Shown here: positions 32,692 to 61,100 of the stretch, piece by piece
Position numbering within the stretch: the first letter of the stretch is position 1
Layout of the letters: each line of letters begins with the position of its first letter
DNA from: Chara braunii
Lineage: Eukaryota > Plantae > Charophyceae
Length of the DNA: 64,000 nt
Assembly (NCBI GenBank): GCA_003427395.1
Contig: BFEA01000032.1
Location: 4,907,489-4,971,488, forward strand
Direction: 5' to 3'
Position numbers and translations under genes: made by a program
Notes under the pieces: model-generated
The model's input: the letters and a program-made list of their open reading frames with translations, nothing else
Database searches by the model: none
Told to the model about the DNA's origin: nothing

Positions 32692-35382
32692 GAGTATTTC
32701 ACGAGTGTTTTCTGCCCTGCGACTTTGGTGGTTGAGTGAGGGCGAGTAACATGGTAGTAGCATGAGAGGTAAAGGGGAAGTAGGGAACTGGGCTAAGGAG
32801 ATAGGCGCAATGAGAAAGAAAGTTCAAGAGGAGTGATACTTACCTCAAGGTTGACTAGTCACGCCTTTGCCTTGGTGAGCATTGCTTTGAAGTGTTTGAC
32901 ATCAACTGATTCATAGTATTAGTTTGGTCGTTGGGGCACAAATTAAGAAGCTAATGAAGAAAAGAGGAAGTCAATTGGTTGTTACTTCGAAATGCAATTC
33001 AATTGCAGTCGCTGTTTGAATCAGTGGTTGGGTGCTATATTAGTGATTGTGTCAAACTCATAACATCTCACTACGTTTATGATTGTACTCATAACATATA
33101 CTATTACTGTATTTGTAACTGGTTTGTGATATTAATGAATTTTCACGATATTCATAATTTTGTATGTGTCCCCGGCCTTCGTCCTTACTCATAGTTGTAT
33201 GTGTGTCCATATACTTTGTTCTTAGTTGTGTTTTTGTTTCGCGTACGTGTGTGTAGTTATACTTATGCATTCCCTGGTAATCGTCAAGCTAAACTTTTCT
33301 TGTCGGGAGTGCTTCTGCTCGTATTTAGACATGTTTGTTCTCGTGATTTGTGGTGCCCATGTTCGAGTTGCTGCAGACTCGCAGCCACATTTTTTACGGT
33401 TTCGATTGTATTCGTTACTTTAATGATCATGTTCAGAATCTGCTATAATCACAACATTATCATCATCATCATCATATTCAATTGTGATAATTTGTTTTCA
33501 CTAGATTCAATCACGATTATCATTTATCCCGACGTCGACCATGTTCGCCCTGTCTATCGGATTTAACGACGATCACGATCAACGTTTTTTCGTGAAGGCG
33601 GATTTGTCCCGACTTATAATCGTGGTTGCTTTGCCTTGGGACCCTGACCATTTTGTTGATCGCGTGTATTTGCTAGGAGCAACGAAACTTTTGTGGTTAC
33701 AATCCTTGTTTGCGTTTTTCTTATATTAAAATCATATTCGTTTTACTAGTAATCATAATCTTTTTTTTTTTTTTTGAATGATCACACTTATTTGTCACTT
33801 ATGGTCGGCTTCGTTCCTTCCTCGCGGTCATATTCATCCTTTCTCTACGACCATCATGATATTTGTTCCTTTTTGTCATTGCATGTATTTTTCTTTGTAG
33901 ATTTATTCATTTAATAGGGTTAACTTTGTTTGTAACGGAGTGTGTACAAAAAGAGAGAGTCGATACATGAGTAAAAAAACAAGAGAGCATAAGTTGAGGT
34001 AGATAGATTCGGAAGGAGGAAAAAAAAGAAGAGAGGAAGTGAGAATTTGAAAGAGAAGGGGAAGAAAAAACGTCTGATCAAAGGTTAACCTAACTGGTTG
34101 AACTATATAGTTCCCACTCGACCCATTTTGTTTATTTGCATAAATCAAGATAAAGGCACAATCAGATACATCCCGCTCGGTGTGCGTGATCATGATCGGT
34201 CATGCTGACTGTGCTGCGTAATTGAGTAGAATGAGAGAGAAAATGATGGAAAAGGTGGAAAGGAGAATATGAAATTACTAGAAGATTGTGAGGAGGAGAG
34301 GAGAAAAAAAATGGTAAAAGATAAGTGAAAAATAAGGTACATGAAAGAGCAGTGAGAAGGAGGGGAGAAAAGTAAAAAAAAGGAGAATAGAGTGAGAAAG
34401 GTAGGGGATTAGTGGTAAGTTTAGAAAACGATAATGAGGGGATAAAGGAGAGAGAGGGGAAATAAGTGGGGGGAAGTTGATTAGTGAGTAGAGGGTGATA
34501 CCCAATTCTTGGGTGGCCAAGAGCATAAAAATCACAAAGATCCTATGGATCTTGACTTCAAACACCCCTTTGGGAAAGAGGTCTTTAAGATGAGGATGAA
34601 CTGCTGCTGCAACAGTTGAATCTCATCGGATGGATCAGATCTGCAGATAAAAACTACATGCATATATCTGGGCTAGGCTGAGATCTTGATAAGCTACCCA
34701 GTTCTTACTGTACCGCAGCCCCCTAGCCAAGAGGGTCTTCAAGTTCAAAGCCCTCAGCAAACTGCCACGTGGCACTGCAGATGTGGCACGGGGCGAGGCC
34801 ATGTTGCTCGCTACTCGATGCTTGCCGATGTGGGGGGAATAATAAATAGTCGGTGTGACACTCTTCAACACCAGCGCGTCACTCACACTACCAACTCGTA
34901 AGTAGATTTTGACCACTGTGTTAAGGCAATGGCCACACACGCTGTCGTACCAAATACCCTTACAAGGGTATTTGGCGTGCTTTTTGTAAGTCACGCTAGT
35001 GCGACCTCGTCCGAGGTTGATGGCGCATTCGCGGGTGAGAGTTGAGTCCTTGCCCGGGTGAGTAGAGCGCGCGAGGTATTGACAGCAAGGAGCAACCATG
35101 TGCGACCCGGTTTGTGCACTGCGTCACAGGCCAGCGGGACGTGTGACCCCTCGCCCCGTTACTTTTTTTTGTTTCCTCGTGTTTATTCTTATTTTTATTA
35201 ATTTTATTATTTTACTTCATTTTTACGGTTATCTTTGACCCGGTGACCGGGTCCGAGACCGACGCCGCGCACTTGGGTCTGGCTCGACTACTACTTTGCC
35301 GGACACGGGCGGCCGTTACGGCAGTCGAGGACCTTGATCACCCGCCTCTTTCCACAGGCCCGCTTGGGTTCCGGCGTGTCCT

Positions 35383-35660
35383 GGATACTGGCAAAAATTC
35401 CTCTGTCTACCCGTCTTGATACTTGGACTGGGGAGTTCAATGTGCATGCGAGCCGGTGGGTAATTAGCCCACGAGGAGGAAAGAAACCTTGGTGGGGGGA
35501 GTCGCTGCGGGCGCACCGTCCGCCAACCACGGTGTGTTGTGACAGGTTTGAGTGCAAGCATGCTGACCAGGGGTCCACAAGGTGGTGAACTATGCCTGGG
35601 CGAGGCCAATGGGCGCCGGTAAAAGGTTCCCGCAGTGCTGGCCGCGCGGCCCAAGCCGTT
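35383..35660 (+). pseudogene. Degenerate 28S/26S rRNA fragment (sense) inside the LTR
   Basis: ACCCGTCTTGATACTTGGACTGGGGAGTT resembles ACCCGTCTTGAAACACGGACCAAGGAGTC. GGTGAACTATGCCTG follows at the expected spacing. Confidence 0.8.
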
Positions 35661-35671
35661 CCAGCAGCAGA

Positions 35672-35711
35672 CCACTTCGGCCCGCAAAGTTCTCATTTAA
35701 AGAATTGCTAC
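35672..35711 (-). pseudogene. Short degenerate 28S rRNA fragment (antisense to the LTR)
   Basis: CCACTTCGGCCCGCAAAGTTCTCATTTAAAGAATTGCTAC is a variant of the two longer copies. Confidence 0.65.
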
Positions 35712-35770
35712 AGCGGGGCCAGGGGGGCGCTGGTGGGAGGCTGCCGCAGTTTTTTGCTGTATGGCAAGGC

Positions 35771-35861
35771 TGTCCCAGCTGTTGTTCCATGGGACACCGC
35801 CCCCACCTCGATCTTCAAAGTTCTCATTTGAATATTTGCTACTACCGCCAAGATCTGCACC
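35771..35861 (-). pseudogene. 28S rRNA fragment (antisense to the LTR)
   Basis: Reverse complement GTGCAGATCTTGGCGGTAGTAGCAAATATTCAAATGAGAACTTTGAAGA is near-identical to a conserved eukaryotic LSU core. Confidence 0.92.
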
Positions 35862-35961
35862 AGGACCTGCGGGGTGGTGGAAGCCTGGGCAACCATGACC
35901 AAAGGATACACCGCCCGTTAACCTCAACCTGCTGCGAAAAGTGAGAGGGTTGGGTGTTGCA

Positions 35962-36210
35962 GGCCTGTGGGACCAGCAGCTGCGGACCCAGCTCAGTTGG
36001 TACACCCGCAAACTGCTGAAAATGGGCCTGTGGGAACTGCTGCAGCGGGCCTAGCTCAGTGGTACCCCCATGAACTGTTGAACAGGCATATGAGACCAGC
36101 ACCTGAGGACCTAGCTCAGATTGGTATACCCGCGGACTGTGGAAACATAGGCCCGTGGGAACAGCTGTCGGCAGGCCTAGCCCAGTTGGTAGACCTGCGG
36201 GCTGTTGAAA
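35962..36210 (+). repeat. Four tandem ~62-bp units, each a tRNA 5'-half with an A box
   Basis: CAGCTCAGTTGGTA, TAGCTCAGTGGTA, TAGCTCAGATTGGTA and TAGCCCAGTTGGTAGA, each followed by an anticodon-arm-like segment ending CTG(C/T)(T/G)GAA. Confidence 0.7.
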
Positions 36211-36407
36211 CACAAACCTGAGCTTAAACTCCACGGAAGGTGGGTGAGTGGGAGCTTGCGGGACATGTTGAAATACCGTTACTTTTATTTTTATTATTTT
36301 ATTATTGTTTATTACTATTATTATTATTATATTACTTATTCCAAGAGGTGGGGACTGAGCAAGGGGCGCCAGTGGGAGACTGCCACAATGTTGGCTGTGG
36401 AGCAAGT

Positions 36408-36686
36408 TGTCCCAGTAGTAGATTCACATGGAGCCCTTCCCCACTTCGGCCCCCAAAGTTTTCATTTGAATATTTGCTACTACCACCATGAGCTGCACCG
36501 GGCCCGCCTCACTTAGCTCACACTGCAGGCTGCACAGCAGGCCTGCGCCTTCCAGCTCATCGGGGAGTTGTGAAGGCCGATGTAGCCCTATCCCTTTGGG
36601 GCAAGCAGTCGGCAAGTGAGTTGATACACACTCCCTAGCAAATCTCAATTTCCACGACCACCACCACGCTGTCTGTATCAGCCACC
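36408..36686 (-). pseudogene. ~280-bp degenerate 28S rRNA fragment (antisense to the LTR)
   Basis: TTCACATGGAGCCCTTCCCCACTTC...TCATTTGAATATTTGCTACTACCACC...TCGGCAAGTGAGTTGATACACACTCCCTAGC...TTCCACGACCACC..GCTGTCT is colinear with LSU antisense. Confidence 0.88.
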
Positions 36687-37785
36687 AGTCGCTGAGGTGT
36701 ACGGGTTAGTGCGCAGTTTAGCGCAGATGGGAGGCAGCGGCTTAGCACAGGAAAGTGAGTGACGGGCAGCAGTGAAGAGAAGTGAACCTGGATAGGAAAC
36801 TGTGTCGGATGCATACAAGGCGAATTGGAGATGGCGGAGTCGATAAAAACGAATATGCCGACGGGGAAGAAGATGTTTTGCGACAGTTCCTCGATGGAAA
36901 CCGGCAAATGGAGGTTCGTTTCCTATGTTTTTGGCCAAGGCGAACCTAATGGCAGAGTAAGAAAGGGAAGTTAGTGGTTAGTTTTGGCGCTACAGAGGAA
37001 AAGTGGTGCGCGGGAGATGGCGGAGACGAGGAAGAAGGGGAGTGGGAACATTTGTATCTCGCTCGTTTCCGGACGAAATCGGGCGAGGGAGGACTCGAAT
37101 CGGGGGTTTTGGGGGTGGGAGACCCCGATTCTGAAGTCAGTACTGGTGAAAAGTCAGTAGAAAAGGAGTTAGTGGAGAAAGGAGCCGCGCGGAGGGATGG
37201 CAGAAGTAGATATGGCAAGGGTTGAAAAACAAAGATCTCACTCGATTCTGCACGGAATCGAGCGAACTAAAAGGCAGAATGGGGGTTTTGGAACATCACG
37301 AGTTCGATGGCGTGGTCAGTTTCTGTGATAAAGATACGGTTTTGGTGCTGCGGGACTCACGGGCTGCGCTGGGGAAAAGAAGGGCTGGAAAACGACAGTG
37401 TATCTTTCCATATTCTAGCGGAAGATACATTTTCATTTTGAACATTCGGTGGGAGAGTTTATTTGGTGGTCTTGCACTCTGCTGGTCACCTCCATTCTGT
37501 TGCTATCATCAGGGCTCAGTCGTTGTTGCCGGACACAGTCAAGGAGAGGGGCTGGTTGAGTTCGTCGCAGACGCCATCGAAGTCGTGGTGGTCGTATTTT
37601 GATCCACCAGTCCTGGCCATGTTCACGACCAGGTGCACTTGTTGGCTGAAGAGAGCGGGAAGGAGAACGGCGGGGGCTGCGCAACTACTAGTAAAGGCTT
37701 CAAAAATTTCAGATGTATCTTTCCGCGTTTTAGCGGAAGATTCATTCTACATTAGCACAATCTAATAAGGAGGGAGCATCAACGA

Positions 37786-37857
37786 GATAGATAGATAGAT
37801 AGATAGATAGAGATAGAGAGAGATAGATAGAGATAGATAGATAGATAGAGAGATATT

Positions 37858-37893
<36 letters not shown>

Positions 37894-37938
37894 GATAGAG
37901 AGAGATAGATAGAGATAGATAGATAGATAGAGAGATAT

Positions 37939-37997
<59 letters not shown>

Positions 37998-37998
37998 N

Positions 37999-38089
<91 letters not shown>
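37786..38089. repeat. (AGAT)n/(AG)n microsatellite inside the LTR
   Basis: Read directly from the sequence. Confidence 0.95.
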
Positions 38090-38092
<3 letters not shown>

Positions 38093-39769
38093 GGGCAACG
38101 ACACTCACCTCTAAGTGCTGGCGATGCGGAATGAGCGGAAGGTCGAGCTGTGGTGTCAGGCTGCAGAGCTCAACAACGGGAAAGATTCGTATGCATCTGC
38201 CCGGGTTTTAACAGAAAGATTCATTTTTACTGTGTGCCTTTGGTGGGTAGTGTAGCAAGGAGAACGTCATTCCCCGTGCTCGAGGTCGTCTTTGATGAAC
38301 CCACAGTCCGCTGTTTTCTGGTCGAGGTGGTGATCGTGCCCACTTTTGAGCATTGCAATGATGCTCTCCCTAAATCTGACTAGGGCCTGGGTCAGATGCA
38401 CCGAGTGAAGGTGGGCACAGTCATGATGAAGGGGGGGGTCGAAGCGAACAGGTATCAGGCGCGGAAGGAGGAAAGGCTATAGTGAGGCTAGAGCTCTCCT
38501 CTCATACTGATTACAATCAGATATAGAGAGAGATAAAGTAAGAAAGGGATGGGAGTGATGATGTAAAGGCACTTATCTGCTTATGGCAACAGCCTGTGCA
38601 TACAACATCTGCACGTATGTTGGTCGGTGCTGCTGACCGGATTGCTGCTCACAGTCCACGTTGCTGTGCATTGGCTCTGTGCTGCTGTAAGTTACTGCGC
38701 TTAAGCAGCCTGGACCTGCTGATATGCTTCATTGTTGTGCCTTGCTCAGAGTCTCCCGTGGTGCCTTTGCAACGCGGTTGCTGGTTAGTTTTTACGAATA
38801 TGGCTACCACTGTGCCTCGCTGCTGCTGGCGCCGTGTCTTTGTCATATCAACCGCGACACTTGCTGTGTGATACTGCTTGCTGGGAGCGGGTGCTAGTGC
38901 AGTGAAGAAGTGTGGAGGGCATAGGATTGGTCTGATTCAGTCTGTGTGCGCCTGGCTGCCTCCTCGCAGTTGTCTGTGCACAAGGACAGTGAAGTCACTG
39001 AAGTGCAAATCGTTTGTTGGACTTGGACATAGAGGCGGGGGACGTTGTCGGATGAGGAATTGGCTGACACATCACTTATTTTACCAGGCAACAAAGGGCA
39101 TTCTGAGCTGAGCTCAGCAAGATCTGGGCCTAGTGTTGGGTGCGGTCGGTCTTGCCACTTAGCTAGTTCAGAACTGCTGCCTGGCCTTGGGAATGTGCTG
39201 ACTGTGATAAAAAACAGACTGTTGTGGCTCTCTGGGAGGCTACTGTTGCAGCTGTTTTCAGAAGTTACTGTGATGACTGGTTCCTACCCGAACTACATAT
39301 TATTTTGGGACCGATTGTTACTACTCGAAGAGTTGTTGTTGTGTGATGGAGTACCGTTTGATGCTCCCAACTTCAGTAGGAGTTGCTTTTTTAAGAGATT
39401 GATGTCGCTGCTCCTAACTACTGTTATGAGTAGAGGCGTGGTTATGTGATCAAGAAAGATTGTTGTTACTATGGGGTTACTGTGGTACTTGGTGAGGCGC
39501 TGCACTGCAGCGACTGCGCACAACTGTTGTGCACGCAGTGCCTCATTGTGCTTTGGCCGCACATGTGCGGTGTTTTCTTGGGGGTGTGCTCTGCTTGAAC
39601 GCACCCTTCTTATGTTACGTAGTGACAGTTGGTCGGAGGGGGTAGCTTTGCGAGTTGAGGGAAGGAAACTGACTCTGCACAAGGATCATTGTTGCGGCTT
39701 GGACGACAGTCGGGAGGTCAACATTCGGCGTTTTGACTTCAGTTTGGCGGTATTACTGCGATTTTGGCC

Positions 39770-40036
39770 ACCATTGCGGGACCCTCAGGCGCACAAAGAT
39801 TATAAGGCCCTCTCCAGCGAGTCTGAGAGCACCCTTCTTGAATCTGAGAGATTGAATCTATCTCTTTCTGCCCTTCTTTCTGCAAGTCTAGTCTATTTGG
39901 TTCTGAGAGGAAGGCGGCAGGCGGGATTGCAACCCGTAGGACCGCAACAAGACTCTGTGGGGAGTCTGCCCACCGATTGCGGGAGCTCTGCTGGAACTCA
40001 TGAGGAGTTCTGGAGGCAGGGAACTGAAAGGTAACC
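39770..40036 (+). promoter_or_regulatory. Putative LTR promoter, first exon and splice donor
   Basis: Most conserved block versus 62060-62325. TATAAG lies at 39801, and conservation drops at AG|GT (40031; 62320 in copy F). Confidence 0.6.
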
Positions 40037-40341
40037 ATTGCTTTCTTTCTATAAACCCGGTATAACCCCTATCTGTATTCCCTGTGACGTTTCGACTGAG
40101 TAAATTGCATGCATCCCTATTTTGACTTTCAGTTTGACTTTCAGGATGAACCAGATTAAATAAAGGAATGTATGCTTAATCTCAGTTTCAACTTTGTTTT
40201 TTGACTGAAAGCAGATTGTAAAAAGGGAATGCATCTGGGAAAGCGTAGGATGGAACGCAGTTTTTGCGTGAGGGTTGACTGGGTCAATCGACTTGTTTAT
40301 TTTGGGGTTTCCTCTGTTTATTTCGTTCTTAACGAGGAGGT

Positions 40342-40906
40342 CTGAGCCATTCTATAAGTTTAGGTGGCTCAGCCTCTTCCTGCTTTTACTTAGAGGAAAT
40401 GAACTTGACAGAGGGTAGATCATTCTATAAGTTTAGGTGGTCTAGCCCAATGCCACGCACATATTGGGTCAGAGAGAAACGAATCAGGTAGAGAGTCAGA
40501 CTGTTCTGTAAGTTCAGGTGGTCTGACTCAAAGCCTTGCACATGCTGGAACCCAAAGGTTATAACTTGACTATATTTTATTACTATCTTATTTAAGAACA
40601 GGCTAGTCGGACTATTCTATAAGTTTAGGTAGTCTGACTATAGCTTATCACAACCTGAAGAGAGTATTAATTAAGAGTAAATTGATGGTAAGATGGGGCA
40701 AACTGAATTTGAGTTTGGTTCAGTCATATGCAGCCTGAAAAGACTAAGTGCAGACAATTATATATAACTTGGATATTTTAAACAGTTCAGGGCGACTATA
40801 ATGGTCTAGTCATATGCCCAAAGAATAAAGAAGTAGTTGTGCCCTTTGTTTTGTGTATACTTATCGGCTAAGTTAGACACATTCCATAAGTTTGGGTGGT
40901 CTGACC
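40342..40906 (+). repeat. Array of UAAGUU-loop RNA hairpins (5 intact, 2 decayed)
   Basis: Loops at 40355, 40428, 40509, 40620 and 40887 are closed by CTA/TAG, CTG/CAG or CCA/TGG, with covarying outer stems. Confidence 0.85.
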
Positions 40907-41214
40907 TTATGTCTTATGTAAGCAGGGTATAAAGGGTTAAATCCTTGAAAGATCATGAACTATTGTTGTCTAGATAAACTTGGGATGGTGAGAGTACTTA
41001 CCTTTGTGGTTTGACCTGCATGTGGCCGAGTGAGGTTACTACTTGGTCCGAGTTTCAGTTTGATAGGTAGTTGCTTTAGTCGCTCGGCACGTGCTAGAGC
41101 TGTAAGAGTTAGTTTCAATTCCTGCATTTTCCGAGCTAAGTTTTTTTTACTTAGATCAATTATCGCATTTTCTGGGATCATTTTTTTTTATTTGGCTTTG
41201 TATAAATCTTGACA

Positions 41215-41760
41215 AGTTACTTTCTCTACGGTAAGCGCTGCCGAAATTTCTACAAATCCAAGAGGTAGTCAATTGTTGACTTGTCAAAGTTCAACTTGTA
41301 TTTTTTTTATATATGACCCAGTAAAAATCTGGAAAGTTTCCTTTTCTAAAGAGAGTGCTGCCCAAATTTTTGCTAATTCAGGGAGTTAGACAAAATTGGA
41401 CTTTGAGAAGTCAAAGTTACTTTCAAATTCTGGACTTAGCCTTGTATAAATTTTGGAATAACACTTTTCTAGAGGGAGTGTTGCCGAAATTTCTGCAAAA
41501 GCTAAGGAGTTAGTTAAATCATGTCTAAGTTGAACCCAAGTTATCTTTTTAGTTCCTATCTGACTTAGTATAAATCTGGGAAGTCTCTCTTTCTAAAGGG
41601 AGTGCTGCCCAAATTTCTACTAATTCAGGGAGTTAGACAAAATTTGACTTTCCAAAGTTAAAGATTATTTATGCTTTCATATGTGGACTTATATAAATTA
41701 TGGAAAGATACTTTTCCTACGGGAAGCGCTGCCGAAATTTTCTTAGTTTGAAGGAGATAT
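41215..41760 (+). repeat. ~120-bp tandem subrepeat in the LTR
   Basis: TTTCTA.AGGGAGTGCTGCC.AAATTT...GGAGTTAG occurs about 5 times. Homologues lie at 63555-63965 and, inverted, at 56450-56600. Confidence 0.85.
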
Positions 41761-43030
41761 ATTATATTTTGATAGGTGATGATTCTGGTAATCCACTCTG
41801 AATAGGGAAGATTTTGCCATGAGTCTACCTTTCTTTGGGCACTTGCTTAGAGGTAGGCTTATATATAGTTAACTAGGATGATTTGGGTAAGGTCATGATA
41901 TGGAGATTGTTCTCCATGAACTTATAGGTTTAGCCTGGGGCATTTACCTGTCATGTGTTACAGGTCCTCTTGATCGTTTGATTCAAAATCCGGACTAGAT
42001 TCAACTTGATCCCTTGAGGGTCATCCTCTGTTATCACTGATAACAGGTCGGTTGCCGATTCGTTGGTTTGCGATTCAACTCCAATCCACTCTTGCCACTC
42101 AACCTAAATGCTTTAGCCCTGTGGTTTGAATTGTTTCATTGTGTTTTCACCCAGACTTTATTTTGAATGACCATTTAAGGAAAAAAAACTGAGTATTTTA
42201 CTTTGAGGAGTTGCACAAGAGTGAGGCTTGTGTGGCTAAAGGCAAGGGGTGTGAGTGCAGAGAATGGTTGAAGTTGACCCCGTATAATGCATGGACTTTC
42301 TGGATGAATCTTTGATGTGATTGCAGATATGCTTGGTGATTCGGACTTGGGATTTGACTGTCTGCGCTCACATACATATATATATGGCTGAGAGGAGTCT
42401 CACTGTGACTGTGAGAAGTGATCGTCCTATATTAATAACCCTCTATATATATGTGTATGTATATGTCTTGAGTGTTTCGTGCGGCTTATTGTGACCGCGC
42501 GTAAGAGTTAAACATATTATGTGTTTGAGAGAAAAGGGAGATCCCCTTTTATCTTGTGTTTTTTAAAGATTTTTATACTCGGACGTTTGTCCTGAGCCGA
42601 GATTCAAGGTCCTTATCCAGGACATCCCAAACCCTAGACTCTGCAGGGAAGAAATCTGTCCCCGTGCAGAGCCTACTTGCCTTGCGTACCGAGACGCTCA
42701 GACCAAAGGTGGGAGGTCTCGCGGCGGCTGCACGACTATTCCTTCAGCCGTGCAATATCGTGAGGGATCAGACCATCACGATACTTCGAGTCTGACACTT
42801 GAGAGCCATAAGTGGTACTCGGATCCACGAGGGACCGCTTGATTACGGGCACTACATAGTACGCCATCATTGCGACTGCTTACGTACGCTTGCATTACGA
42901 GTCGGTATGAGTTAGTCCTGCGTCCGCGCGGTTGTATACTAATTCTCGCGCGCGACGCCTATTCGATTCCCGCATCGGAAAGTTATGGGATGACTACCAA
43001 AGAGACTGGGAATGTCGTCGCGTTGTTTGA

Positions 43031-43064
<34 letters not shown>

Positions 43065-43534
43065 TTTTTTGCGTTCGTAGAGTGGTGTGCACGTGGTGTG
43101 TGGGATGCGTCCTAGTCGACCGACGACGAGTCGCACTTGGGACCGCACCCCCCCAAGATGGCGGTCTGCGTGCGGGTCCGATAGAGGCGTACTACCGCAT
43201 GTACCCCCTATGCTACAGCGAACGAGAAACACCCTCGGCTGGTGCACCTCTGCGATTGCAGCTGATTAGCTTTCGTAATGTGGACTGGTAGCTCGACGGG
43301 GATACGCCCACCGAAGGGAGGTGACAACTCCCATAAGGTGGAGGTAAGGCGTGCCTCGCGTAGGCCCTGTCCTGTCGTAGGGGCTCGTGAGAGGTATGGC
43401 TGGCGCACTCGGCTGGAGCGGCTTGCGGAAGCTCCATGTATATTCGCGATGAGAATTATATCCAACTCCTGCGTGACGCGGCCGGGAGGGTCCCGCGCTG
43501 CCCTATGAGGTGCCGGACCAATGCGCTCGACAGG

Positions 43535-43552
43535 TGGCGCCGTTGCCGGGGA
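43535..43552 (+). promoter_or_regulatory. Primer-binding site for tRNA-Asp(GUC) (Athila-type)
   Basis: TGGCGCCGTTGCCGGGGA is complementary to the plant tRNA-Asp 3' end TCCCCGGCAACGGCGCCA, 2 nt after the LTR-terminal CA. Confidence 0.92.
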
Positions 43553-44981: not shown

Positions 44982-44987
<6 letters not shown>

Positions 44988-45458: not shown

Positions 45459-45670
45459 GGGTTTTTGCAGTGGTATATGAAAAACACACACACAAGGAAC
45501 CCCAAATCATTTAGGGGCATTTTGGCATATATCTCAACTTATGGGGGTATTTCCTCGGCTACCAGAGTAAAAAAAAAAACTGTGAGAGCGTGGCCTATTG
45601 ACCCTCAAGCGTTTCAAGCATATTTGCGGCGCATCGAGGTGCGCTACACCCTGCACGTGTGTCGCACCGC

Positions 45671-46567
45671 TGTCGGAGCTGATACCCTTACAAGGGTATC
45701 CGCTCATGATATTGCAGTTGACATAATGTCGACGCCAACTGTTAGAACGGAAACTGCTAAAAATAGGAACTGGGGCAAGCCCCTCGACCATTATGGTCAT
45801 AAGAGTGTAGGAACCGCAAGGGCCAAAACACGGCACGCACGGATAAGAGTCAGGGGTTAAAAATTTTCGAGTGCTTGTCTGCGTCATCGCAACGTATGCA
45901 AAGACGACGGAGGTTAGTGGATTAAAAATTTGAATGACCGCGCGCGCCATTTCGACAGGCGTAAAGAGTACAAAGTGGTCAATAAATAAAACCTCCGACC
46001 ACGAGGTCGGAAGGTTAATCAAAACGGAAAAGAGTCACGGGGGGCGCGGAAACGGTTTTTCTCAGTCAGTTGATGACTGAGGAAGTATGACTGTTTCGGC
46101 TCAAGCCCGCACACGTCGAGTGTGTCGGAAAAGAGAGGCGGAAAACCACTCCCCGCAGGATAGAATATAAGTAGAAATCAGTAAAGGCCCCGACCATGTG
46201 TCCGGGGCGACTAGACAAAAGGGGCCTAACCTGCTGTAACAGGCTGCGATGGCCAACAGTGGCCTGGGTTTCCCCTAAGGTAGGACGCAAGCCTTATGAA
46301 CTGACTAGACTGAACCCTGTACTTTACTTAGGGCAGATTGACTCTTAGTAAAATCGAACTAGGAACTAGCCCAGTAGGTATAGGCACAGACTGATACGCA
46401 GAGGATCTTGGGATCGAGTCCGACCTGTCTCCGAGCTAGCTCCTTTTGCTAGCTATAGGGGGCAGGGCCTACCTTTTCCACCCGCCCACAGATGGGCGGG
46501 ATTCGAACCCGCGCCCTCCGTGTCGAGGGTTAGTTAGAGGTTGGTGGAGCCTACACCTCGGACCCGA
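45671..46567 (+). mobile_element. 5' part of an LTR of the same family (copy C), interrupted by copy D
   Basis: TGTCG plus the family terminal hairpin GATACCCTT-AC-AAGGGTATC. 45830-45990 resembles 26650-26855. Confidence 0.7.
46481..46520 (-). pseudogene. tRNA-Leu-like variable/T-arm fragment with a perfect B box
   Basis: Minus strand GGAGGGCGCGGGTTCGAATCCCGC resembles tRNA-Leu GAGGGCGTGGGTTCRAATCCCAC. It overlaps a CCCGCCCA/TGGGCGGG hairpin. Confidence 0.6.
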
Positions 46568-47529
46568 TGTCGGTGCGAATACCCTTATGAGGGTATTCAC
46601 CCTGGTTTTTGCAAGCAACAGAAAATAGTTTTGGCTTAGAGCTTAAGTATACCGTGCTAGGCGTTACGTTGACTGGATTATCGATTAGAGTAAAGAGTGC
46701 GTGGCCGCGCAGGTTTAAGGCGCGCGTGATTCATCCCCTGATATCGTTTACGAAACCGGCGCGGACGCCAGTCTCTTTATTTTTATTTTTATCTCTAAGT
46801 CTTTATTTTTGGTTACTCTTGATTAAACTAGGATCTAGGGGATATTTTCTTTCGATGGCTACGTTTATCCGGGTCGAGCGCGCGTGCGGAGAACGCCCCC
46901 GACGACGACGTTGACAATGACAGCGCGACTTCGTGCGACGAGCGGGGTGTCGCAGGATGGCGCGCGGGGTGATTATGGCACGGTATAAGCAAGCCGTCGC
47001 GGGGCACTGGAAAGCCGTGCAGCCGGTTTGTGGACCCAAAGCGCCGAGCCGAACTGCCTTGTATGGTGCTTTGCGGGTGCTGGTCTCAGGCTTGGATTTA
47101 GCCCTATAGGTTACGATAACGGACAATTACTATGAAGGTTCGGGGATCGAGGCCAGCGGGCGTCGGCCCAACAACTGTAGCGGAGCGGCGTGAAAAGGGC
47201 CGAGGGGTCGAGGGCCCGACGAGGGCTATCCCCCTCCGCTTTTTGTTTGCGGGCGCGGAGGAGGAGGAGAAGGGCCGATCCGTAGGGCTGCCCGTTGAAA
47301 TTCCCCGTTTTAGAGTTATTGAGTTTGCTTTTGTTTAATCTCCTTTTTATTCTTGTTTTACTCGCGTCCCGTTCTGGGACGCGATATCGGGCCTGATATG
47401 GGGTCACGGGAGGTGAGTTGTATTCGCGGGGTTGTCGAAAGTGCAATTACAAACTGTTTTCGTGACCGCGCTGGAGCCGCACCCTGCTTTGTCATGGGAC
47501 GAGGCACAGTGGGGGCGCGGCTGGCGCCC

Positions 47530-47603
47530 AGGAGCCTAGCTCAATAGGGGCACCCTTGGGCTGCTGAGTCGTGGATCCGGGTTTGGACCAGAAAATGGAG
47601 CCT
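47530..47603 (+). pseudogene. Degenerate tRNA-like element in the LTR
   Basis: TAGCTCAATAGG (A box), an anticodon-arm-like GGGCTGCTGAG and GGTTTGGACC (decayed B box). It resembles the units at 35962-36210. Confidence 0.45.
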
Positions 47604-47703
47604 GTTGAGAAGGTTAAGTAGTTCAAGGTTGCCTGGGGCCAAGCGGACCCCGAGGGCGGCCGCATGGTCTTTGGTAATGCCATGATGGGGCGGCCGCGGT
47701 CAA

Positions 47704-47792
47704 GTTCTTCGGGACATCCGTTAAAATTGGAACGATATAGAGAAGATTAGCATGGCCCCTGCGCAAGGAATAATGCGTATAAAACGGGGAGA
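47704..47792 (+). ncRNA. U6: U6 snRNA-derived copy embedded in the LTR (variant or pseudogene)
   Basis: GTTCTTCGGGACATCCGTTAAAATTGGAACGATATAGAGAAGATTAGCATGGCCCCTGCGCAAGGA matches the plant U6 core. ACAGAGA has become ATAGAGA (47738), the 3' end is divergent, and no USE/TATA lies upstream. Confidence 0.92.
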
Positions 47793-50700
47793 GGAACGAG
47801 AATTTCGGGTTTTCGTTTTGGGGATTGGTTTCACTCTCTCGCTGCAACACTCTTTGCTACGAGGGCGGATCGCTATTTCGCTATTTGGCAGCTGCACTAT
47901 GAGGCGGAGGCTGGCGAACGGGAAGTACGAGGCAGCGGGGGAGGGAATAAATGTGGACGCAGTCTCGTGCAAGGGACACTCCTAGTAGAAAAAGGGAGGC
48001 GCCGGGGCAACGGAAGCTGCGAGCGCCGGTGGTGCTGATCGGAGCAGGGCGCCGGGGAACGAAGGTGCGAGGGAGCCAGCGAACCCGGCACGCTGCCGGG
48101 GCCAGGTGCATTCGGAGGTAGAATAAGCGGAGCTGCAATGATGCGCAGCGTGGCGGACTGACGGGCGCTATGGGAGCGTGGAGTTGAGGTAGCGACGGCG
48201 GGTGCTGGGGACATGGAGCGCATCGAAGAGCTGCGGGGGGGGGGGATGGACGTTGAATCAGCAGTCAGGCAGAAGGGATAAACCTGGTTGGACTAGTGCG
48301 CCAGGTGCATGCAAGGGAAAGTGGAGATGGCGGAGGCGAAGTGAAGGCAGGGCGCAGTCAAGGAGGAGTGGCGTAACCGATTTGCGGTGGAATCGAGTTA
48401 GGGGATACAACTGGCGTTAGTACGGAGGCGACAAGGGGAGAAAGAAATAGGAATGAACCCGGACGTGGGGTGCGCCGGGTGCATTCGGAGCGAAGAGGAG
48501 GTATGGCGGGGTGGATAACTCACAACTCGCCCGTTTCTTAGCCAAATCGGGCGAGCGAAGAGTTGATTTCGGGGGTTTAAAGGTGGGCGACCCCGACTGT
48601 AGTGTTAGTTTTAGGATTAGATTAGTAGATTGTGAGTTAGTGAGAAAGTCAGTGAGGGGAGCTATGGCGGAGAGATTAGGGGGTGGGATGACGACCGGAA
48701 AACGCCCGTTTCTCTACGATAGCGAGTGTCTACGGGGTCGAAACTGGCAGTCGAGTATGGGGTTAGATAAGAGAAATAGTTAGCAGGAGGAGAGTTAGAG
48801 GAGGGATGGACTGCGAGGGGTGAGGAGGAGAGGAGATTCGAATGAACCCAGATGGGTTTCCGCGTTAGGTACATGCAAAGGAGGGAGGGAAAAAAATATT
48901 GATCCCACCCATTTCCTGATGAAAACGGGTGGGAGAAAGGTCGACTCCAATGTTTTTCGGCAGGGCGGATTTGAAGTCGGTTCAGTCAAGGAGTTAGCAG
49001 TTAGTGAGCTAGAAAAAGAAAGGTTATGCGTGAGGTGATGGACATGGCCCTTTCGGGCCGAAAAGGTCGCCCGTATACATCCATTATTATTATTATTATT
49101 ATTATCCATTGTCATTGTTATATTATATTTATTATTATTATTATTATTATTTTTTATATTTATTTATTTATCTATTTATTTATTTATTTATTTATTTTTA
49201 CCCTACCATCACGATCGGTGGTTCCTCCGTATGAGCTGCTGTTCAGAAAGTACGAACATGACGTGATCGCAACAAGCTGGGGAGAAGAAGAAGAAGAAGA
49301 AGAAAAGGGGAGAAGAAGGGGAAAGGAAAGGAGGCGAATGGTGGTTCTTGGGTGTATGAGACATCTGTGAGTGGGGGATCGAGGTTGTGAGTGGTACGAG
49401 AGACATACCTGGTGCTGAAGGCGTGCAACATTGATCGCCATGTGCTCGTACTTCGGGAATGCTTTTGACCTCATCTTTCGACTTCATAGTATAGGCTAGA
49501 TAGGATCTGTCACATGTAGTCCTCCTAGTGAATCACATCTTCCTAGTGGATCATACCTAGTGGAAGTCCCCCGCGCGACTTCCCCTCCCCGCTTCGCACT
49601 CCTTCCCCCCCTCCCCCCACGCCCGTGCCATACCCCCCGCACATTTCTTTCCCCACCTACTTCGCGCTCCCTCTCCTACCCTCGCGACACATGGCACAAT
49701 AGGACAAGGCTTACAAATCATCGAACATCATAGAACTTGCCCGTTTTGTTTTTTTTTTCGTTTTAAAATTAATTCTTTTCGATTTTTTTTTTTTTTCGCA
49801 GTTTGTTTTCTTTTTCATAGTCAGCAATTATTATTCTCTTTTCCTTGTCATTTATCTTTCAAAAATTAATTTCGCAATTAATCAATTTAACCATTTTCAA
49901 ATACTTTTGAATCTTGATTTTTTTTCCGAATATTTTGCATTTCGAAATGAATTTCTTCGGAAATACCCTAAAATTTCATTTACTCCACCCAAAAATTGCA
50001 TTTCCGTTTTTGAAATTCCAAAAAGTTTTTCTTGCAAATATTTTAATTACTTAAATAATTAAACTCCGAAAAAGAACCAAATCAACATTTAAATCCAAAT
50101 TCAACTTTCTTTTCGTTTTAAAAATTCTCGAATTTCTTTTTCAAATTTCGTTGTATTTTTCTCGAATTTAACCTTTTTTTTTTCCAACATTTCTTTTATT
50201 TTTTCAAAGTAATTTAAAAATCCCGATTTAAATTATTTTCATAATTATCAATTAAATTCGTTAAAAGTTCAAAATAACCCCCCAAAGTATAGCATTTGTT
50301 TTTTTTTTCCATTTATTCCAATTTTAAAATTTCCGCATTTTGTCACAAAAAATAGCCCGAAATTTTTTATTGTCATTTAAAATTTCTTCCTCCCGAAATT
50401 TTTAATTGTCATTTACTAATTTTTTCCCTTCCTCCCGCCAACCTCTCCCAAAGTTCCAATATTTTTCCTCTTCTTCTATCTTCTCCCCATTCCCCCATCC
50501 CTCCTCTCCCATCACACCCAATTGGTCACATCATCTAAAATTTCTAATGCGTGTGACACGTATATCCTCTTTTTGTGTTTGTTTGACAATGCCGTTCATC
50601 GTGCTGTGTGAAACACCAACCTAATTCGGTGGGATCAATCTTCGTTCTGTCTTCTTCCAACGCCGCAAACGGAATAAATTTCGGCCATTTTGTTCAAAAG

Positions 50701-52029: not shown

Positions 52030-52131
52030 AATTTTTTTGTTGACTGACACTTTTGTTATTCTGACGGATGGGACATGACTCAAGATCTGGTGGAATTGCA
52101 TGCCTGCAACTCGTATCACAACAACACGTCT

Positions 52132-52194
<63 letters not shown>

Positions 52195-52302
52195 GACACA
52201 CAGAGAGAGAGATNCAGTTTTGAAGTGTGGACACAAAGGATTTAGCTCGGATCTCGTGCGAAAAACCGAGTTATTGTGGCTGGGGTAGCCTTATCCCTTC
52301 AT

Positions 52303-52487
52303 CATCCTGCGGGAATAAAACCATATGAGGCGACCACACCCCTCAAACCTTACCCTTTGGTGAGACGTGGGTCCGCCGCCAGGTTGCTCTTATCCGTCCG
52401 TCTTCCTGCGGGAATAAAACCATATGAGGCGGCCACACCCCTCAAACCTTACCCTTTGGTGAGACGTGGGCCCACCGTCAGGTTGCG
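52303..52487. repeat. Two-copy ~100-bp direct repeat
   Basis: TCCTGCGGGAATAAAACCATATGAGGCG.CCACACCCCTCAAACCTTACCCTTTGGTGAGACGTGGG.CC.CCG.CAGGTTGC occurs twice. Confidence 0.9.
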
Positions 52488-54944: not shown

Positions 54945-54962
54945 TCCCCGACAACGGCGCCA
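54945..54962 (-). promoter_or_regulatory. Primer-binding site for tRNA-Asp (minus-strand element)
   Basis: Minus strand reads TGGCGCCGTTGTCGGGGA directly after ...CTCGACA-GG. Confidence 0.9.
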
Positions 54963-56979
54963 CCTGTCGAGTGCATCGGTCCCGCAAGGAGACCCTCCGG
55001 ACCGCGTCACGTAGGATTTGGAGCGTGGTTTGCCGCTCCAGCCGAGTGCGCCAGCCGTACCTCTCGCGAGCCCTTACGATAGGACAGGGTCACGCTAGGC
55101 ACGTCTTACCTCCACCCGCGGAAGTTGTCACCATCCCTTCGGTGGGCGTATCCCCGCCGAGCTACTGAACCACGTGCGAAAGTTTTTCGTTTGCAGTCGC
55201 AGAGGTGGTTCGGTCGAGGGCGTTTCTCGTTCACTGTAGCATAGGGGGTACGCGCGGTCAACGCCCCTCAATCGGACCCGCACGCGAATCTACGCATTGG
55301 GGGGTTGAGGTCCCAAGCACAACTCGTCGTCGGTCGACTAGGACGCATCCTACATATCACGCGTTACACTACAATACTCACACACACGGAAGGACACAAA
55401 ACAAACAACACAATAACACAACAACACTCCCAGTCCCTTTATTGCCTGACCCATTACCTTTTAAAATGGAAGTCGGTTAGGTGTCGCTCGTGAGACTCAA
55501 GATAAAATAACGCAGGCGCAGTGCTTTTTCATATCGACTAGCCATGGAAGCATACGCAAGCAGTCGTAATGATGAAGTAATGTGTGGTAGTCAAAATCAT
55601 GCGACCCTTGATGATCTCGGGGGTCACATTTTGACACTCAAGTGTCGGCTGACACTCGCCTTGAGGGGTTAATCTTTTGGCGCTAGACAACCGCCAAGGC
55701 GGTTGATCACCACACCCTCTTCTGCACCCTATGGAAAGTGGGTGGTACACAGGTTCATACCTGTGGTGACAATCGTCTCTTATTGCCCTGGAGACCAACT
55801 CCACCATCTAGAACGTGGATAAAACTCAAGGAGTTTGACTTTGACGGCTGCCACGGACTATAACGTCCAACTAAAAAAACAAAAAGGATGAAAGGGGAAT
55901 CTTCGTTTTCTCTCAAAGTATAATCTGTTTAACCCTTGCACACGGTCACAATGGGTCGCGCGAACATCCAACGTGTAACTTCAATCATTCTTTGCGCTAA
56001 CACCCCTCGCTTTAGCCATACAAGCCTCTCACTCTTTGTGCAACTCTCAAAAAAAAAATACTCAGTATCTTTATTAAATGGTCATTCAAATAAAGTCCGG
56101 GTAAAAACACAACGAAACAAATCAAACCACAGGGTTAAAGCCTTCAGGTTGAGTGGCAAGAGTGGATTGAAGTTGAGTCGAAAACCGACAAATCGGCAAC
56201 CGACCTGTTACTAGTGATAACAGAAGATGATCCTCATTGGATTAAGTTGATGCTAGCCCAAATCTTGAATCAATTTGAATAAAGATGGCCTGCAATGCAG
56301 CACAGCCCAGTGCCCAAGCCATGCTTGAGTGATCATGAAATAAACCTACGTTCCTCATTAGCCTCCGATGTTTATAAAAGAATGTCAGGAATTTTGACAT
56401 ATATCCCTTGAAGGGCAGATTGTCGAACCTTCAAGTTCTAAAATACCTTAACTCCTTTAAAATATAAAAAATTTCGGCAATGCTTCCTGTAGGAAAAATG
56501 CCTTTTCATAATTTTCAAGTGTCAAAAAATGACTAACTCCTCCAAATCTGTAAAATTTCGGCAGCGCTTCCCGTAGGAACAGGAGACTGCCAAGATTTAT
56601 ACAAAGCTGAAAATGCAAAGACAAAGTACAACTATACTTGGGACTAACTTCTGACAGTTACTTGATAGTTAGAACCGGAGATAGTCTGCACGATCCCTTC
56701 TTGAAGATGGCATCGTGAGCTAACACCGATCCTAACTCCTAGTAGGGCCAGTCCTATCTTATCCCAAGTTTCCCTCCCACCATCCATCTCACCTACCTAA
56801 AGTTCTAGCACTCAGCGAGCATCTAAAACAACTAAGCTATCAAAAAGATGCCCCAAACGATTGTCCACAAACATGCATAACAAACATCTCTCTCAGTCCC
56901 ACATCAGCTTAATCCGAATCGTTCGTTAATCTCTCAATTTTTTTGACCCTCAATAACCCCCTTTCCTATGGCATAGGAT

Positions 56980-58177
56980 CAGACCGCCCCAACTTAAGGG
57001 TACGCCCGAGTGAAACAAATAGGGTGCGCACAACTAGACTGCCCCAACTTAGGGGTATGCCTAGCTTCCATGACAGAAACGTGTGTGCAGACTACCCCAA
57101 CTTAGGGGTATGCCCAACCCAACATTAACTGTGCACATAAAGCATATGACCAGACCGCCCTAACTTAAAGGTACGCATGACTTTTTCTTAACTGACGACA
57201 TGAGGCATATGACTGGACTGCCCTAACTTAAGGGTATACCTAGTTAGCCTTAAACGAAGTTTACGTAGGGCATATGATTAGACTGCCCCAACTTAGGGGT
57301 ATGCCTAACCTGCCTAAACAGGTACAAACGACGAATGGTCAGACCGCCCTAACTTAAGGGTACGTCCAACCTACATAACATTAACGACGCTAAACCGCCC
57401 CAACTTAGGGGTACGGCTAGTTAGCCTAAACAGTTTAAGATACATAAGGCAATGTGACCAGACCGCCCTAACTTAAGCCACAGGTCCCCCCGCCACCGAA
57501 AACCCCTAGTCCCTGTGTTAGGGCCGGTTTGTACGGAGGGGCGGCGACCGTACGGAGGCGTCGGGTTGTGCGGAGACCGACGGGTCCAATCCCACCATTT
57601 TGCAAGCGGCAACTTTGCCGATTTTTTATGCTCAAAAGAAGTCATGAAAATATCTGAAAATTTGAGCGTCTGTAGATTAGGTCATGATCTTTCAGGGAAA
57701 AATATCAGAAAAAATAAAATAAAAATAATTTTCACGGTGAAATATTCGCCGCGCCGATTCGGTTTATTTTCATTTTTTTTCGCAAATTTCGTACGGAGGC
57801 CCGCCCGGTTTTCCGCGCTGTACAACCGGTACCCGTCGTGAAACGGCGCTACCGGTATCCCGAGGTTTTTGACGTTAGGGGGACCTGTGGTGCCTGATCT
57901 GCCTAAAACAAGTTACAAACGACGTATGACTAAGCCGCCTCAACTTAGGGGTACGCTTAGCCTCCGTAACAACAGTTCAAACATTCATGAATACTTTCAT
58001 ACAAACTTAATAATTTCAGTTCTTCTTAGGCAGATGATCAGACCGACCCAACTTAGGGAGACATCCAACCCTGCCTTGTGTTTAAAAGGGAAAAAAAAAA
58101 AAAAATTATACTAAAACGCTGCCCCTTTTTGTGTTATCACGAGCATAAAACTGAACCGCGCTAACTTAAGGGTACGC
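56980..58177 (-). repeat. Array of 12 UAAGUU-loop hairpins with variable spacers
   Basis: Plus-strand GACYGCCCY-AACTTA-RGGGTAYGC with loops at about 56991, 57046, 57099, 57162, 57225, 57290, 57351, 57402, 57470, 57942, 58050 and 58163. Confidence 0.9.
57478..57890. mobile_element. ~410-bp MITE inserted into one hairpin unit
   Basis: TIR CCACAGGTCCCCC / GGGGGACCTGTGG with GTACGGAGG subterminal repeats. No clear TSD. Confidence 0.8.
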
Positions 58178-61100
58178 TGTCGGCGCGAATTCCCTTATAA
58201 GGGTATCCACTCTGTTTTATGCAAGTGGCAGAAAATGATTTTGGGGTAAAGTTAAGTATATCACGCTAGGCGCAGCTATGTCTGTGACTTACATTGACTG
58301 GGTGGTTGACTATAATAGAGAGTGTGTGGGCAAGCGGATTTTAAGACGCGCGTGATCTTTTTATTTGTTGATGATTGAAAGGATGGCGTGATCGCCGACC
58401 ATAATTTATTTCTTCTGATTAAACAGGGACTAAAAAAAGTTTTATTTCTTGATTGGTGCATTTACCTCGACTTGCGCACGCATACGGAGGACGACGTCAA
58501 CGGCGGCATGATCCGGTATAGCCGCGCGGTGGGCACGGAGGTTGGCGGTCGACGGTTCGGTCGATAGGTCGATGTGTGGGATTAAAATGTTTCGGTAGAT
58601 TGGCGCGTCGAGCAGTGTCTGTTTATTTAGACTTTCGTCAAAGTGAACAAGCCTTGGGCCTAGCGCTATTGTTTACAGTATTAGACTCACGTCAAGGAGA
58701 TTCAGGGATCGGGGTCGAGTGGCGACGACGCGAGAACATCAGAGTGTCGCGAAGGCGTCAATGGGGTCGAGGGTCGGCAGGGTTATCCCCCTCGGCTTTG
58801 TCGTCCGTGACGCCTGATCGGAGATGGCGTTTCCTAGGTAATCCTCTTTAGCGCCGTATTTTGTTTGTTTCTTTTGAGCCCCGACGAGCCGTTGACCTGG
58901 GGTAACGCCGAATTTAATGGCCACCTCGATGCGGTCCTGGGTACGACCCACGTTTCGGGTCTAGGGAGGGCGCGCGGGGGTGTGATGTATTTACAAGGTG
59001 GCCGGGAGCGTGGCCATGGGCTAGTCTCGTGAGCACGCCGAAGCTATCCCGTTTGAGCGTTTCGGGGCCTACGTAGTAGCCACACCCATGCTCAAGCCTC
59101 CCATGAGGGAGAATGCGGGAACTCCTCCCACTAGTAGGGGCGATATCCGGTATAGCGGGTGGTACCGGCCAGGGGTTAGCCGGTTGCATTAGGACCAAGC
59201 TTCTCGGAGGCGGCCGTGGGCCACTACGGCCAGCCTATTGTGAAGCCCTTCCTCACCGCAGTGGCACATCAGGCCGCGCCGCAGCCCGCTGATAGTAGGT
59301 AGACGCCCATCGGGGGACCAGCTAGCAATCGGGAGCAGAGTCGAGCAGCGTTGCGCAACAGCGGACTGAAAAGTTGGGGCAGATAGGAAGACCGCTGCGC
59401 TAAGGCGCTAGCTGGCCGATGGTGAAAACAAAAGGGAGTGGGGGAGTACGAGGGTTGTCAAGCGAGAGCAAAGAAAACAGTTGAATCCGGGCGCTAAATC
59501 ACGCCGGATGCATGCGGGGAGTAGGAAAGAAGTGAAGAGGAGAAAACTTGCCACATCGGCCGGTGGCTCGCCCCGCTAAGAGTACTTCTTCGGGAAAGTC
59601 TTGGCTGGTCGGACGGCTCTGTGGCGCAGCGATAGAGACCGGTAGCACTTGAGTGCAGCTTGAGCGCTGAAGAGACGAGCGAGATGGATACTGAGGCGGG
59701 CTAGGAAAGAAAAGGAAAGGAACGAACCCGGGCGGGAAGATGCGCCGGGTGCATGCGAAAAGGCGGGCTATGGCTGAGAGGGGGAGAGGGCCAGCTCGCT
59801 CGATTCCCCATAGTTTCCGACGGGGGAAGAGTCGATCCCGGGGTTTTTGCCCCGGGCGAGCGCAGTGANGAGGTTAGTTTTGGAAGAGGGTTAGTGTAGG
59901 AGGGGGTAAGAGAGAAATGAANTACNCGGGATATGGCGGGAGAAGAAGTACGGGTAGANAAGTTGANCTCACCCGTTTCTCGATGAGAACGGGCGAGTGA
60001 AGACTCGCTCTGGGGTTTTTAGACATTGCGAACACGATAGTGNAGTCAGAAGGGAGGAAAAANTAATGTAAAAGGGAGTTAATAGGAAAAACCGCGCGCG
60101 GAGAGTGTCGGGGAGGAAGACGAACGAGAGTGAAGTTGCACTAACTCGCTCGTTTTCCGACCGATTTTAACGAACTAAGATACTAGACTCGGTTTTTTAG
60201 GCCGGGCGAATACGTTGGTGAAGTCAGAATAGTGGGAGGATTAATGGATTTGAAGTTAGAAAGAGAAGTGGTAGCGCGGAGCTATGGCGGGCGAAGAAGT
60301 GAAGGAGAAGAGGAAGGGAAAAGGTTATATCTCAACCGTTTTTTGACGAAATTGGGCAAAATAAAACTATAGATTGGGGTTTTGGGGTGCTGCGAGATGA
60401 ACAGTGATGTTAGTTTTGCGGATAAAGGAGCGGATCAACTGGTACAGAGGAAAAGGGCTGCGAGAGAGTGTCGAAGAGGGGAATATGACGAATTTGAAGG
60501 TATTCGTTTTAGCAAACTCCTAGCAAGGACTAGGCAAGAAGGAGGAGAGATGAGGAGCGGGGGTTTTGGGAAGTTGCCAGCTCCATGGCAGGCTCGGATC
60601 CCGCAGTGAAGATGTAGTCTCTGTGCTATGTCAGGTAGCGGCTGCGCGAATATTGAAGGGCGCTTGGAAAGCTGAATGTATCTTTTCGCATTCTAGCGGA
60701 AGATTCATCCGGATTTTGCTAATCCTATCGATGGAAAAGGCCACTCTCTAACTCTCTACAAGCATGATCGACAGCGATTTATATTTCCGCTTTTAACGGA
60801 AAGGTTCATTCTCATTTTACAGCTTCGAGGGGAGGGGCTACGCGGCTCATGGTCGCTTCCGATCGTGGTGCTCGGGACACGCAAGTGGTCTTCATCTTCA
60901 CACTGACCACTTCACCATTGGTAATCTCGTCTCATTGCCTGTCAATTGTCCATCCGGCGGTCCTCTTCCTGTTCGCGGTCAGCCTGCCTTTCTTGAGTCT
61001 GCGAGGTGTACGGGAGCCTGGCCGGGTGGCCTACCAAGTGAAGAGAGAGAGGGAGAGACGGCCCCCACTTGTCCCCCTGTGGGAAAGGCAGTAGGGAAAT

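Follow-up and report, generated by a model that had tools for sequence, protein, structure and literature searches.

A 64,000-nucleotide (nt) stretch of the genome of the charophyte Chara braunii (GenBank assembly GCA_003427395.1, contig BFEA01000032.1, positions 4,907,489 to 4,971,488 of the forward strand; hereafter the window, numbered from its first letter) holds seven pieces, A to G, of one long terminal repeat (LTR) family, with TGTCG...CGACA ends and an Asp/Asn-type primer site. Here we show that copy B carries pieces of 26S ribosomal RNA (rRNA), copy D a U6 small nuclear RNA (snRNA) and copy C a reversed tRNA-like piece, that a tRNA-derived module is common to the family, and that the sense 26S piece of copy B exists in many sister copies. 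Our preferred reading, held with roughly even confidence, is that reverse transcriptase (RT) jumped onto abundant co-packaged rRNA and U6 and back, and that the pieces became fixed as passengers in a tolerant 5' part of the LTR. The "interchangeable cargo bay" of a first-pass annotation of this sequence appears overstated.

Results

A terminal hairpin following TGTCG, or a decayed form of it, occurs at five places in the window (0.01 expected by chance) and marks copies A, B, C, D and F; copies E and G were added by self-comparison. Copy B (34943..43532, + strand; hairpin at 34954..34971, +) is an 8,590-bp LTR running from TGTCG to CGACA, and its collinearity with copy F over 39683-41645 and with copy E over 40884-43595 argues that the 8.6 kb form one LTR-like unit. 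When contigs of two DNA sequencing runs, X1 and X2, were placed on 34700-35800 (2,671 and 2,799 contigs, respectively), 83 and 90 of them had loose ends immediately before 34943 that were unlike one another (agreement 0.36-0.37); position 34943 is therefore an element end that recurs at many sites. Summed contig depth, which is not the same as copy number, was 74,000-134,000 at the hairpin of copy B. The giant-LTR family proposed in the first-pass annotation is borne out by these observations; its label "U3" for the 5' part of the LTR is a tentative one. The terminal motif had no match in metagenome contigs.

The sequence CGACA, two bases and an 18-nt primer site follow one another twice in the window, at copies B (43535..43552, +) and E, that is, at two of four 3' ends, with A and G lacking the site. 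Among the tRNAs compared, its best match was Asp(gtc), at 15/18, and it contains the 13-nt Asp/Asn motif given for ATHILA elements.

The remaining copies are partial, short or decayed. Copy C (45671..46567, +) is a 5' part, homologous at its 5' end to D and F (z 5.0-5.5) and cut by the insertion of D before the position of the supposed bay. Copy D (46568..49041, +) is a truncated 5' 2.5 kb with about 66% identity to F over the 5' end. Copy E (54945..58175, -) is a 3' part of the LTR (primer site 54945-54962, LTR from 54965) that reaches approximately the start of F, with matches to B extending to about 57000. Copy F (58178..64000, +) runs off the window, and copy G (26746..27500, +) is a decayed 5' end with a probable 3' end at 30212-30489. 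Copy A (18848..19466, -) is a 620-bp solo LTR with both ends, whose flanks share no match over 5 bp and whose ends interrupt another repeat, the second U6-bearing repeat described below. A purine-rich block (36767..37440, +) is common to B, D and F at 60-73% identity. LTR length is explained in part by internal tandem repeats (41190-41780, 56430-56630 and 63513-64000; 56960-57480; 62574-62724), with units of about 120-125 and 63 nt plus shorter motif repeats in copy E.

Six 26S pieces, scoring 5.4-128 bits, were found in the whole window with a large-subunit (LSU) rRNA profile built from 46 loci, and all six lie inside copy B. The rRNA references comprised 107 usable rDNA loci, two viral-contig loci having been dropped as too short; a second profile was built from 30 loci, and the best background score over ten shuffled windows was 2.5 bits. 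The pieces lie in both orientations, scattered over 3.7 kb and reaching +4.1 kb, and all derive from profile positions 135-1056 (about 920 positions). Piece a (35304..35640, +) scores 59 bits for 35374-35603; host rRNA reads match it from 35304, and it extends to 35635-35640 in 9 of the 38 reference loci used to compare a and b in rRNA coordinates. The antisense piece of about 300 nt (36422..36721, -) reaches 124-128 bits with the LSU profiles and 68 bits with Rfam. Its 3' part is duplicated at 35776..35869 (-, 58 bits), 35724-35867 and 36363-36505 being 77% identical, and there is a further short duplicate of part of it at 35672..35711 (-, 11.8 bits). The sense and antisense 28S fragments annotated in copy B at 35383-36686 are thus real 26S pieces, but the sense one starts at 35304 rather than 35383.

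Two further pieces lie downstream. Piece b (38997..39037, +, 16.2 bits) is found 3.36 kb beyond piece a and continues it in rRNA coordinates: its start falls -12 to +5 nt from the end of a in the nine references that align a fully, and the offset is 20-46 nt in the other 29, where a stops earlier. Piece c (38115..38175, +) is weak, at 5.4 bits; in rRNA coordinates it shares 15-20 nt with the start of the antisense piece. Confinement of the cargo to a zone 0.3-1.8 kb inside the LTR does not hold, because 38115-38174 and 38997-39037 lie outside it. Since the pieces all come from one stretch of about 1 kb of 26S, with two pairs abutting, they point to one capture that was later scattered. The family module described below and the purine block sit between a and b in native order, and a simple inversion accounting for c and the antisense piece was ruled out because the intervening purine block keeps the family orientation. 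A (TTA)n tract (36285..36340, +) can be read in two ways, as ancestral T-rich sequence or as the A-rich tail of the antisense 26S piece; in copies D and F the module is followed by a T-rich tract.

No target-site duplication (TSD) of at least 7 nt was found around any piece in seven junction tests, and no match to small-subunit rRNA, 5.8S or the internal transcribed spacers was found in the LTR family with 14 loci that have long upstream flanks. Rfam over 37400-43600 gave matches at chance level and missed pieces b and c. A 26S-like match at 45566-45618 (7 bits) was excluded from the counts as weak.

Sequencing depth shows that B-type sequence has many sister copies. The locus's own contig has a depth of 15.6, and summed depth is 18-38 just outside the LTR, 399-2,518 over the non-rRNA 5' sequence of copy B, and 185-1,302 over those parts of the 26S piece, and beyond, where host rDNA gives no cover. 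Among the 16 DNA records listed in a per-contig comparison with copy B, eight from each run, five bridge the junction of flank and 26S at 35304, extending at least 31 letters to either side and diverging from B by 7-19%; a single locus present in both runs may account for two of them. The sense 26S piece is therefore not absent from sister copies, as it would be had it been confined to this locus.

RNA reads from one oligo-dT run, of which 6% was read, provide a contrast with the DNA. Of 788 reads on 34700-35800, none was at least 99% identical to copy B and 736 were below 90%; because they lie almost only on the rRNA-like part and are mostly below 90%, we take them to be host rRNA. At 35382, 35491, 35380, 35502 and 35373, among the 40 of 295 letter differences listed, 99-100% of RNA reads differ from copy B but only 3-16% of DNA depth does so, which indicates that the sisters share B's derived letters. 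The sense 26S piece of copy B was thus likely captured once and then amplified. Run X5 yielded few contigs, nearly all of them on the rRNA-like part of the same interval. No RNA record for the 5' region of copy B was present among the matches listed, a result with no bearing on expression.

ARAGORN found no tRNA in the window. Alignment of 5' ends nevertheless revealed an A-box and B-box pair, spaced by about 44-45 nt, in copies C, D, F and G, and this recurrence argues that the tRNA-like element is a family inheritance. Combined A+B-box scores were ranked over 128,000 positions, and a tRNA profile was built from 163 tRNAs of phage and prokaryote contigs (shuffle maximum 10.6 bits). The best-kept module, in copy C (46360..46432, +), scores 19.8 bits over 46366-46428 and ranks 2; that of copy D (47092..47155, +) ranks 11 and that of copy G (about 27349-27410) ranks 23, and that of copy F (about 58654-58720) is degraded in its B box. 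A profile made from the D, F and G modules had the copy C module as its only other clear match (12.8 bits, against a maximum of 4.5). Copy B retains, just before piece a, a weak A-box-like remnant seen by alignment only (35274..35292, +; rank 15,280), followed by four tandem module copies of about 62 nt (35955..36212, +) in which the A box is kept and the B box mostly lost. These units align to the C module (z 7.7, 61/84) and not detectably to those of D and F (z 0.9 and -0.1). What had been annotated as four captured tRNA halves are therefore tandem duplicates of the family module.

The boxes have been kept and the cloverleaf lost; cloverleaf folding was rejected, as the modules do not fold as tRNA. 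The first TTTT follows 84-205 nt after the module in copies C, D and F, and copy B contains 63 such T4 runs. With terminators following this closely, the element RNA could not be a product of RNA polymerase III (Pol III). Predicted to bind TFIIIC, the module could give rise to short transcripts only, and these would be missed by oligo-dT libraries. Of the functions proposed in the first-pass annotation, a Pol III-type promoter or TFIIIC site accordingly has sequence support, in the shared module and not via the rRNA or U6; the others do not.

The U6 copy in D (47704..47805, +; Rfam 72 bits) begins at U6 +1, with its 5' two-thirds nearly intact and its 3' third poor. It has no TSD of at least 7 nt, no A-tail and no TATA upstream, and the roughly 450 nt after it do not align to copy F (z -0.7). 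A working gene was ruled out by the missing TATA and the eroded 3' part. The tRNA-like element annotated beside it was less convincing: this second A/B-box-like stretch (47531..47592, +) is weak, ranking 21 without a match to the tRNA profile. In copy C, the annotated tRNA T-arm was confirmed as a reversed tRNA-like piece (46490..46557, -), at 14.0 bits and rank 6; a tmRNA match there was rejected, being to the T-arm only. Rfam matches to SCARNA7, CrcZ and miRNAs were low-complexity or palindromic sequence, all below gathering score.

Copies F and G contain no recognisable captured RNA. The stretch described as hairpin-rich cargo in F folds no better than shuffles (z -0.82), has no Rfam match of note and shares homology with the sequence that precedes U6 in D (z 4.1); positions 58800-59450 belong to the family and are not non-coding RNA (ncRNA). 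Pieces of differing kinds in the 5' parts therefore stand for B (26S), D (U6) and C (reversed tRNA). The idea of one exchangeable module whose cargo varies from copy to copy is not supported, as the tRNA-like part is family-wide and B's 26S looks like one capture.

U6 is also not exclusive to the LTR family. A second repeat family occurs at 7221-9575 (+) and 20476-17142 (-), with about 2.6 kb of patchy homology and no relation to the LTR family; both copies carry a decayed internal U6 (8637-8742; 18039-18150, -), about 280 nt after a telo-box-like motif, which brings the U6-like pieces in 64 kb to three. Derivation of D's U6 from this repeat was ruled out, the flanks being unrelated (z 0.2-2.1). 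A free tRNA/SINE-like (short interspersed element) head at 32609-32684 (-) has the best A+B-box score in the window. With U6 in an unrelated repeat and a free tRNA-like head, ncRNA scraps are evidently common here. Enrichment at the 5' LTR position, which the earlier proposal implied, is suggestive only: three of six ncRNA events fall in an estimated 9.5% or so of the window (P 0.014, post hoc), and an alternative count of four of seven gives P 0.002, likewise post hoc. The same 13-nt word occurs at the 3' junction of copy A (18843-18855) and in C's reversed tRNA-like piece (46510-46526), by chance or as a shared target.

Elsewhere in the window, an intronless histone H2A gene (10953-11390, -) has a histone 3' stem-loop (10853-10898, -), which at 25.8 bits stays under the Rfam gathering score, and a decayed copy of the gene lies nearby (15113-15563); a histone gene of the stem-loop type alongside plant-like repeats is suggestive of an algal host. 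There is an unrelated LTR retrotransposon remnant at 345-3470 (-), with Pfam matches to gag (E 1e-8) and RT (E 4e-5). Palindromic repeats resembling miniature inverted-repeat transposable elements or foldback elements (25812-26363, 27881-28502) give spurious miRNA matches. Among the reference contigs, two "viral" contigs from IMG/VR terminate in LSU rRNA of eukaryotic type (L001:3726-4114, L002:2847-2968) and are possibly rDNA-inserting elements or misassigned contigs.

Discussion

Several features favour RT jumps as the origin of these pieces: the U6 copy is in sense orientation from +1, TSDs are lacking, and the break between pieces a and b surrounds a module and purine block in native order. 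In retroviral biology, plus-strand synthesis starts in U3. A jump during minus-strand synthesis would give a sense piece and one during plus-strand synthesis an antisense piece, a route on which our literature search found no paper. A gain in U3 would then be copied to both LTRs and inherited, and later duplications would have scrambled the captured stretch. The rRNA and U6 pieces themselves are likely neutral passengers.

Several observations weigh against this reading. At other positions of difference, most contigs carry the rRNA letter and copy B has private changes; the hairpin is linked to the cargo through a series of overlapping contigs, none of which covers the whole distance. Both b and c are short pieces, and b scores 49 against one reference where the shuffle maximum is 47. 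The tRNA set was chosen by an A-box motif from the window, so A-box matches are favoured. Divergence of 20-30% would erase TSDs, and the A-rich tract that lies 60-80 nt beyond the antisense piece may represent a tail of the type left by long interspersed elements (LINEs). In mammals, LINE machinery is described as making retrocopies of 28S, U6 and tRNA in either orientation, in the relevant passages of PMC13174262 and PMC4476161. The 64-kb window holds no paired LTR, polypurine tract or complete element, and none of eight open stretches after the two primer sites matches a retroelement Pfam family, the gag-pol remnants being short and decayed. With no paired LTR, TSD or coding domain found, the superfamily is a lead rather than a result.

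It is quite possible, though we put it short of even, that only B's rRNA is heritable and that the U6 of D and the reversed tRNA of C were inserted at their single loci after integration, leaving one capture and no pattern; this would be compatible with either mechanism for copy B. D's U6 departs far less from its consensus than D does from F, as would be expected of a young insertion, and U6-like pieces recur in the window. Against this, U6 has neither TSD nor A-tail, and the unalignable stretch after it looks more like replacement than clean insertion.

Insertion at the DNA level into the long, dispensable sequence of an active master LTR, as LINE-made retrocopies of a tRNA-SINE head, a 26S piece and U6 or as break-repair filler, followed by amplification, seems to us possible but on the doubtful side. 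Pieces in both orientations, the A-rich tract near the antisense piece, and an unrelated repeat with U6 together with the free tRNA-like head, which suggest that retrocopies are common here, are all in keeping with it, as is the proposal of SINE insertion behind Helenus, Ajax and Cassandra (Kojima, PMC10886601). Yet TSDs are missing, no LINE sequence is recognisable beside the pieces, and the a/b split would need an insertion, a duplication into it and a deletion.

We consider it unlikely that the Pol III/TFIIIC module in U3 is a recurrent landing site, with sub-lineages bearing heritable 26S, U6 or tRNA and with the a/b split a fossil of RT re-entry within one particle. Most improbable is selected cargo, with the module as a recurrent capture site and the pieces aiding the element through TFIIIC or nucleolar tethering or small-RNA mimicry or decoy: foreign ncRNA does lie within about 0.6 kb of the module in three of five module-region copies (B, C and D, not F or G; post hoc P 0.002-0.014), D's U6 is nearly intact in its 5' part and the B type was amplified together with its pieces, but the 26S pieces have been scrambled and have eroded, F and G are without ncRNA pieces and A without the entire zone, no RNA read reaches 99% identity, and host rRNA is probably too distant for efficient small-RNA mimicry.

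In sequence terms, the family looks like a giant-LTR relative of Cassandra and Helenus. Helenus has a tRNA-derived LTR, and Cassandra and Ajax have 5S-derived ones; together they form TRIMp3, a group of miniature terminal-repeat retrotransposons (TRIMs) (Kojima 2024, PMC10886601). The likeness comprises an LTR stretch derived from a small RNA, kept A and B boxes, a lost RNA fold and a primer-binding site beside the LTR. TRIMp3 elements, however, total 311-1,263 bp and are thought to be wholly Pol III-transcribed, whereas here one LTR measures 8.6 kb with 63 T4 runs, well outside the miniature size of under about 1.3 kb with whole Pol III transcription; the present family also carries 26S and U6 and includes a short copy, A, without the module. 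The module likely originated by SINE insertion, as Kojima proposes for Helenus, Ajax and Cassandra, and is not new in itself, since "not a few" Repbase LTRs are stated to hold tRNA-like parts (PMC10886601).

ATHILA and other non-chromovirus Ty3/gypsy elements share the 13-nt primer-site motif directly after the LTR and long non-coding regions, going by the relevant passages of bioRxiv 10.64898/2026.03.20.713144 and PMC6317226. ATHILA LTRs, in contrast, are typically 1-2 kb, and LTRs above 3 kb are called infrequent in PMC3485330. The same abundant RNAs reach retroelements in SINE28 and LINE-1 chimeras, for which PMC10946416, PMC13174262 and PMC4476161 describe 28S pieces of 50-482 nt, U6 in sense from +1 and antisense tRNA. 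Those, however, are non-LTR products of target-primed reverse transcription with TSDs on their flanks; in the present family the pieces are internal to an LTR, and the sense piece of B was amplified along with that LTR. A table of rDNA-bearing elements in PMC10946416 gives 5S, intergenic-spacer and SINE28 cases and no LTR element with 26S or 28S. LTR elements have likewise mobilised snRNA (Giles et al. 2004, as cited in PMC4476161), in few, old, single mammalian copies, and the citing text describes no heritable part of an LTR lineage. For gains of this kind by LTRs, the relevant passages of a 2026 paper name Cassandra and Helenus/Ajax and no others. Our search, with Repbase entries, supplements and subscription papers outside it, found no report of 26S rRNA as an amplified LTR part, and the literature listings on algal genomes showed no LTR with 26S or 28S; Repbase or the supplements of papers may already contain this family.

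With these findings, the range of small-RNA-bearing LTRs reaches beyond miniature TRIMs to very long LTRs, and 26S rRNA is added as an amplified LTR part. In practical terms, such repeats inflate counts of rRNA, U6 and tRNA genes, and rRNA reads are mis-mapped to them. Should further lineages carry other RNAs, the family would document which RNAs plant-lineage retrotransposon particles package, and would offer a natural test of whether an element transcribed by RNA polymerase II benefits from Pol III boxes.

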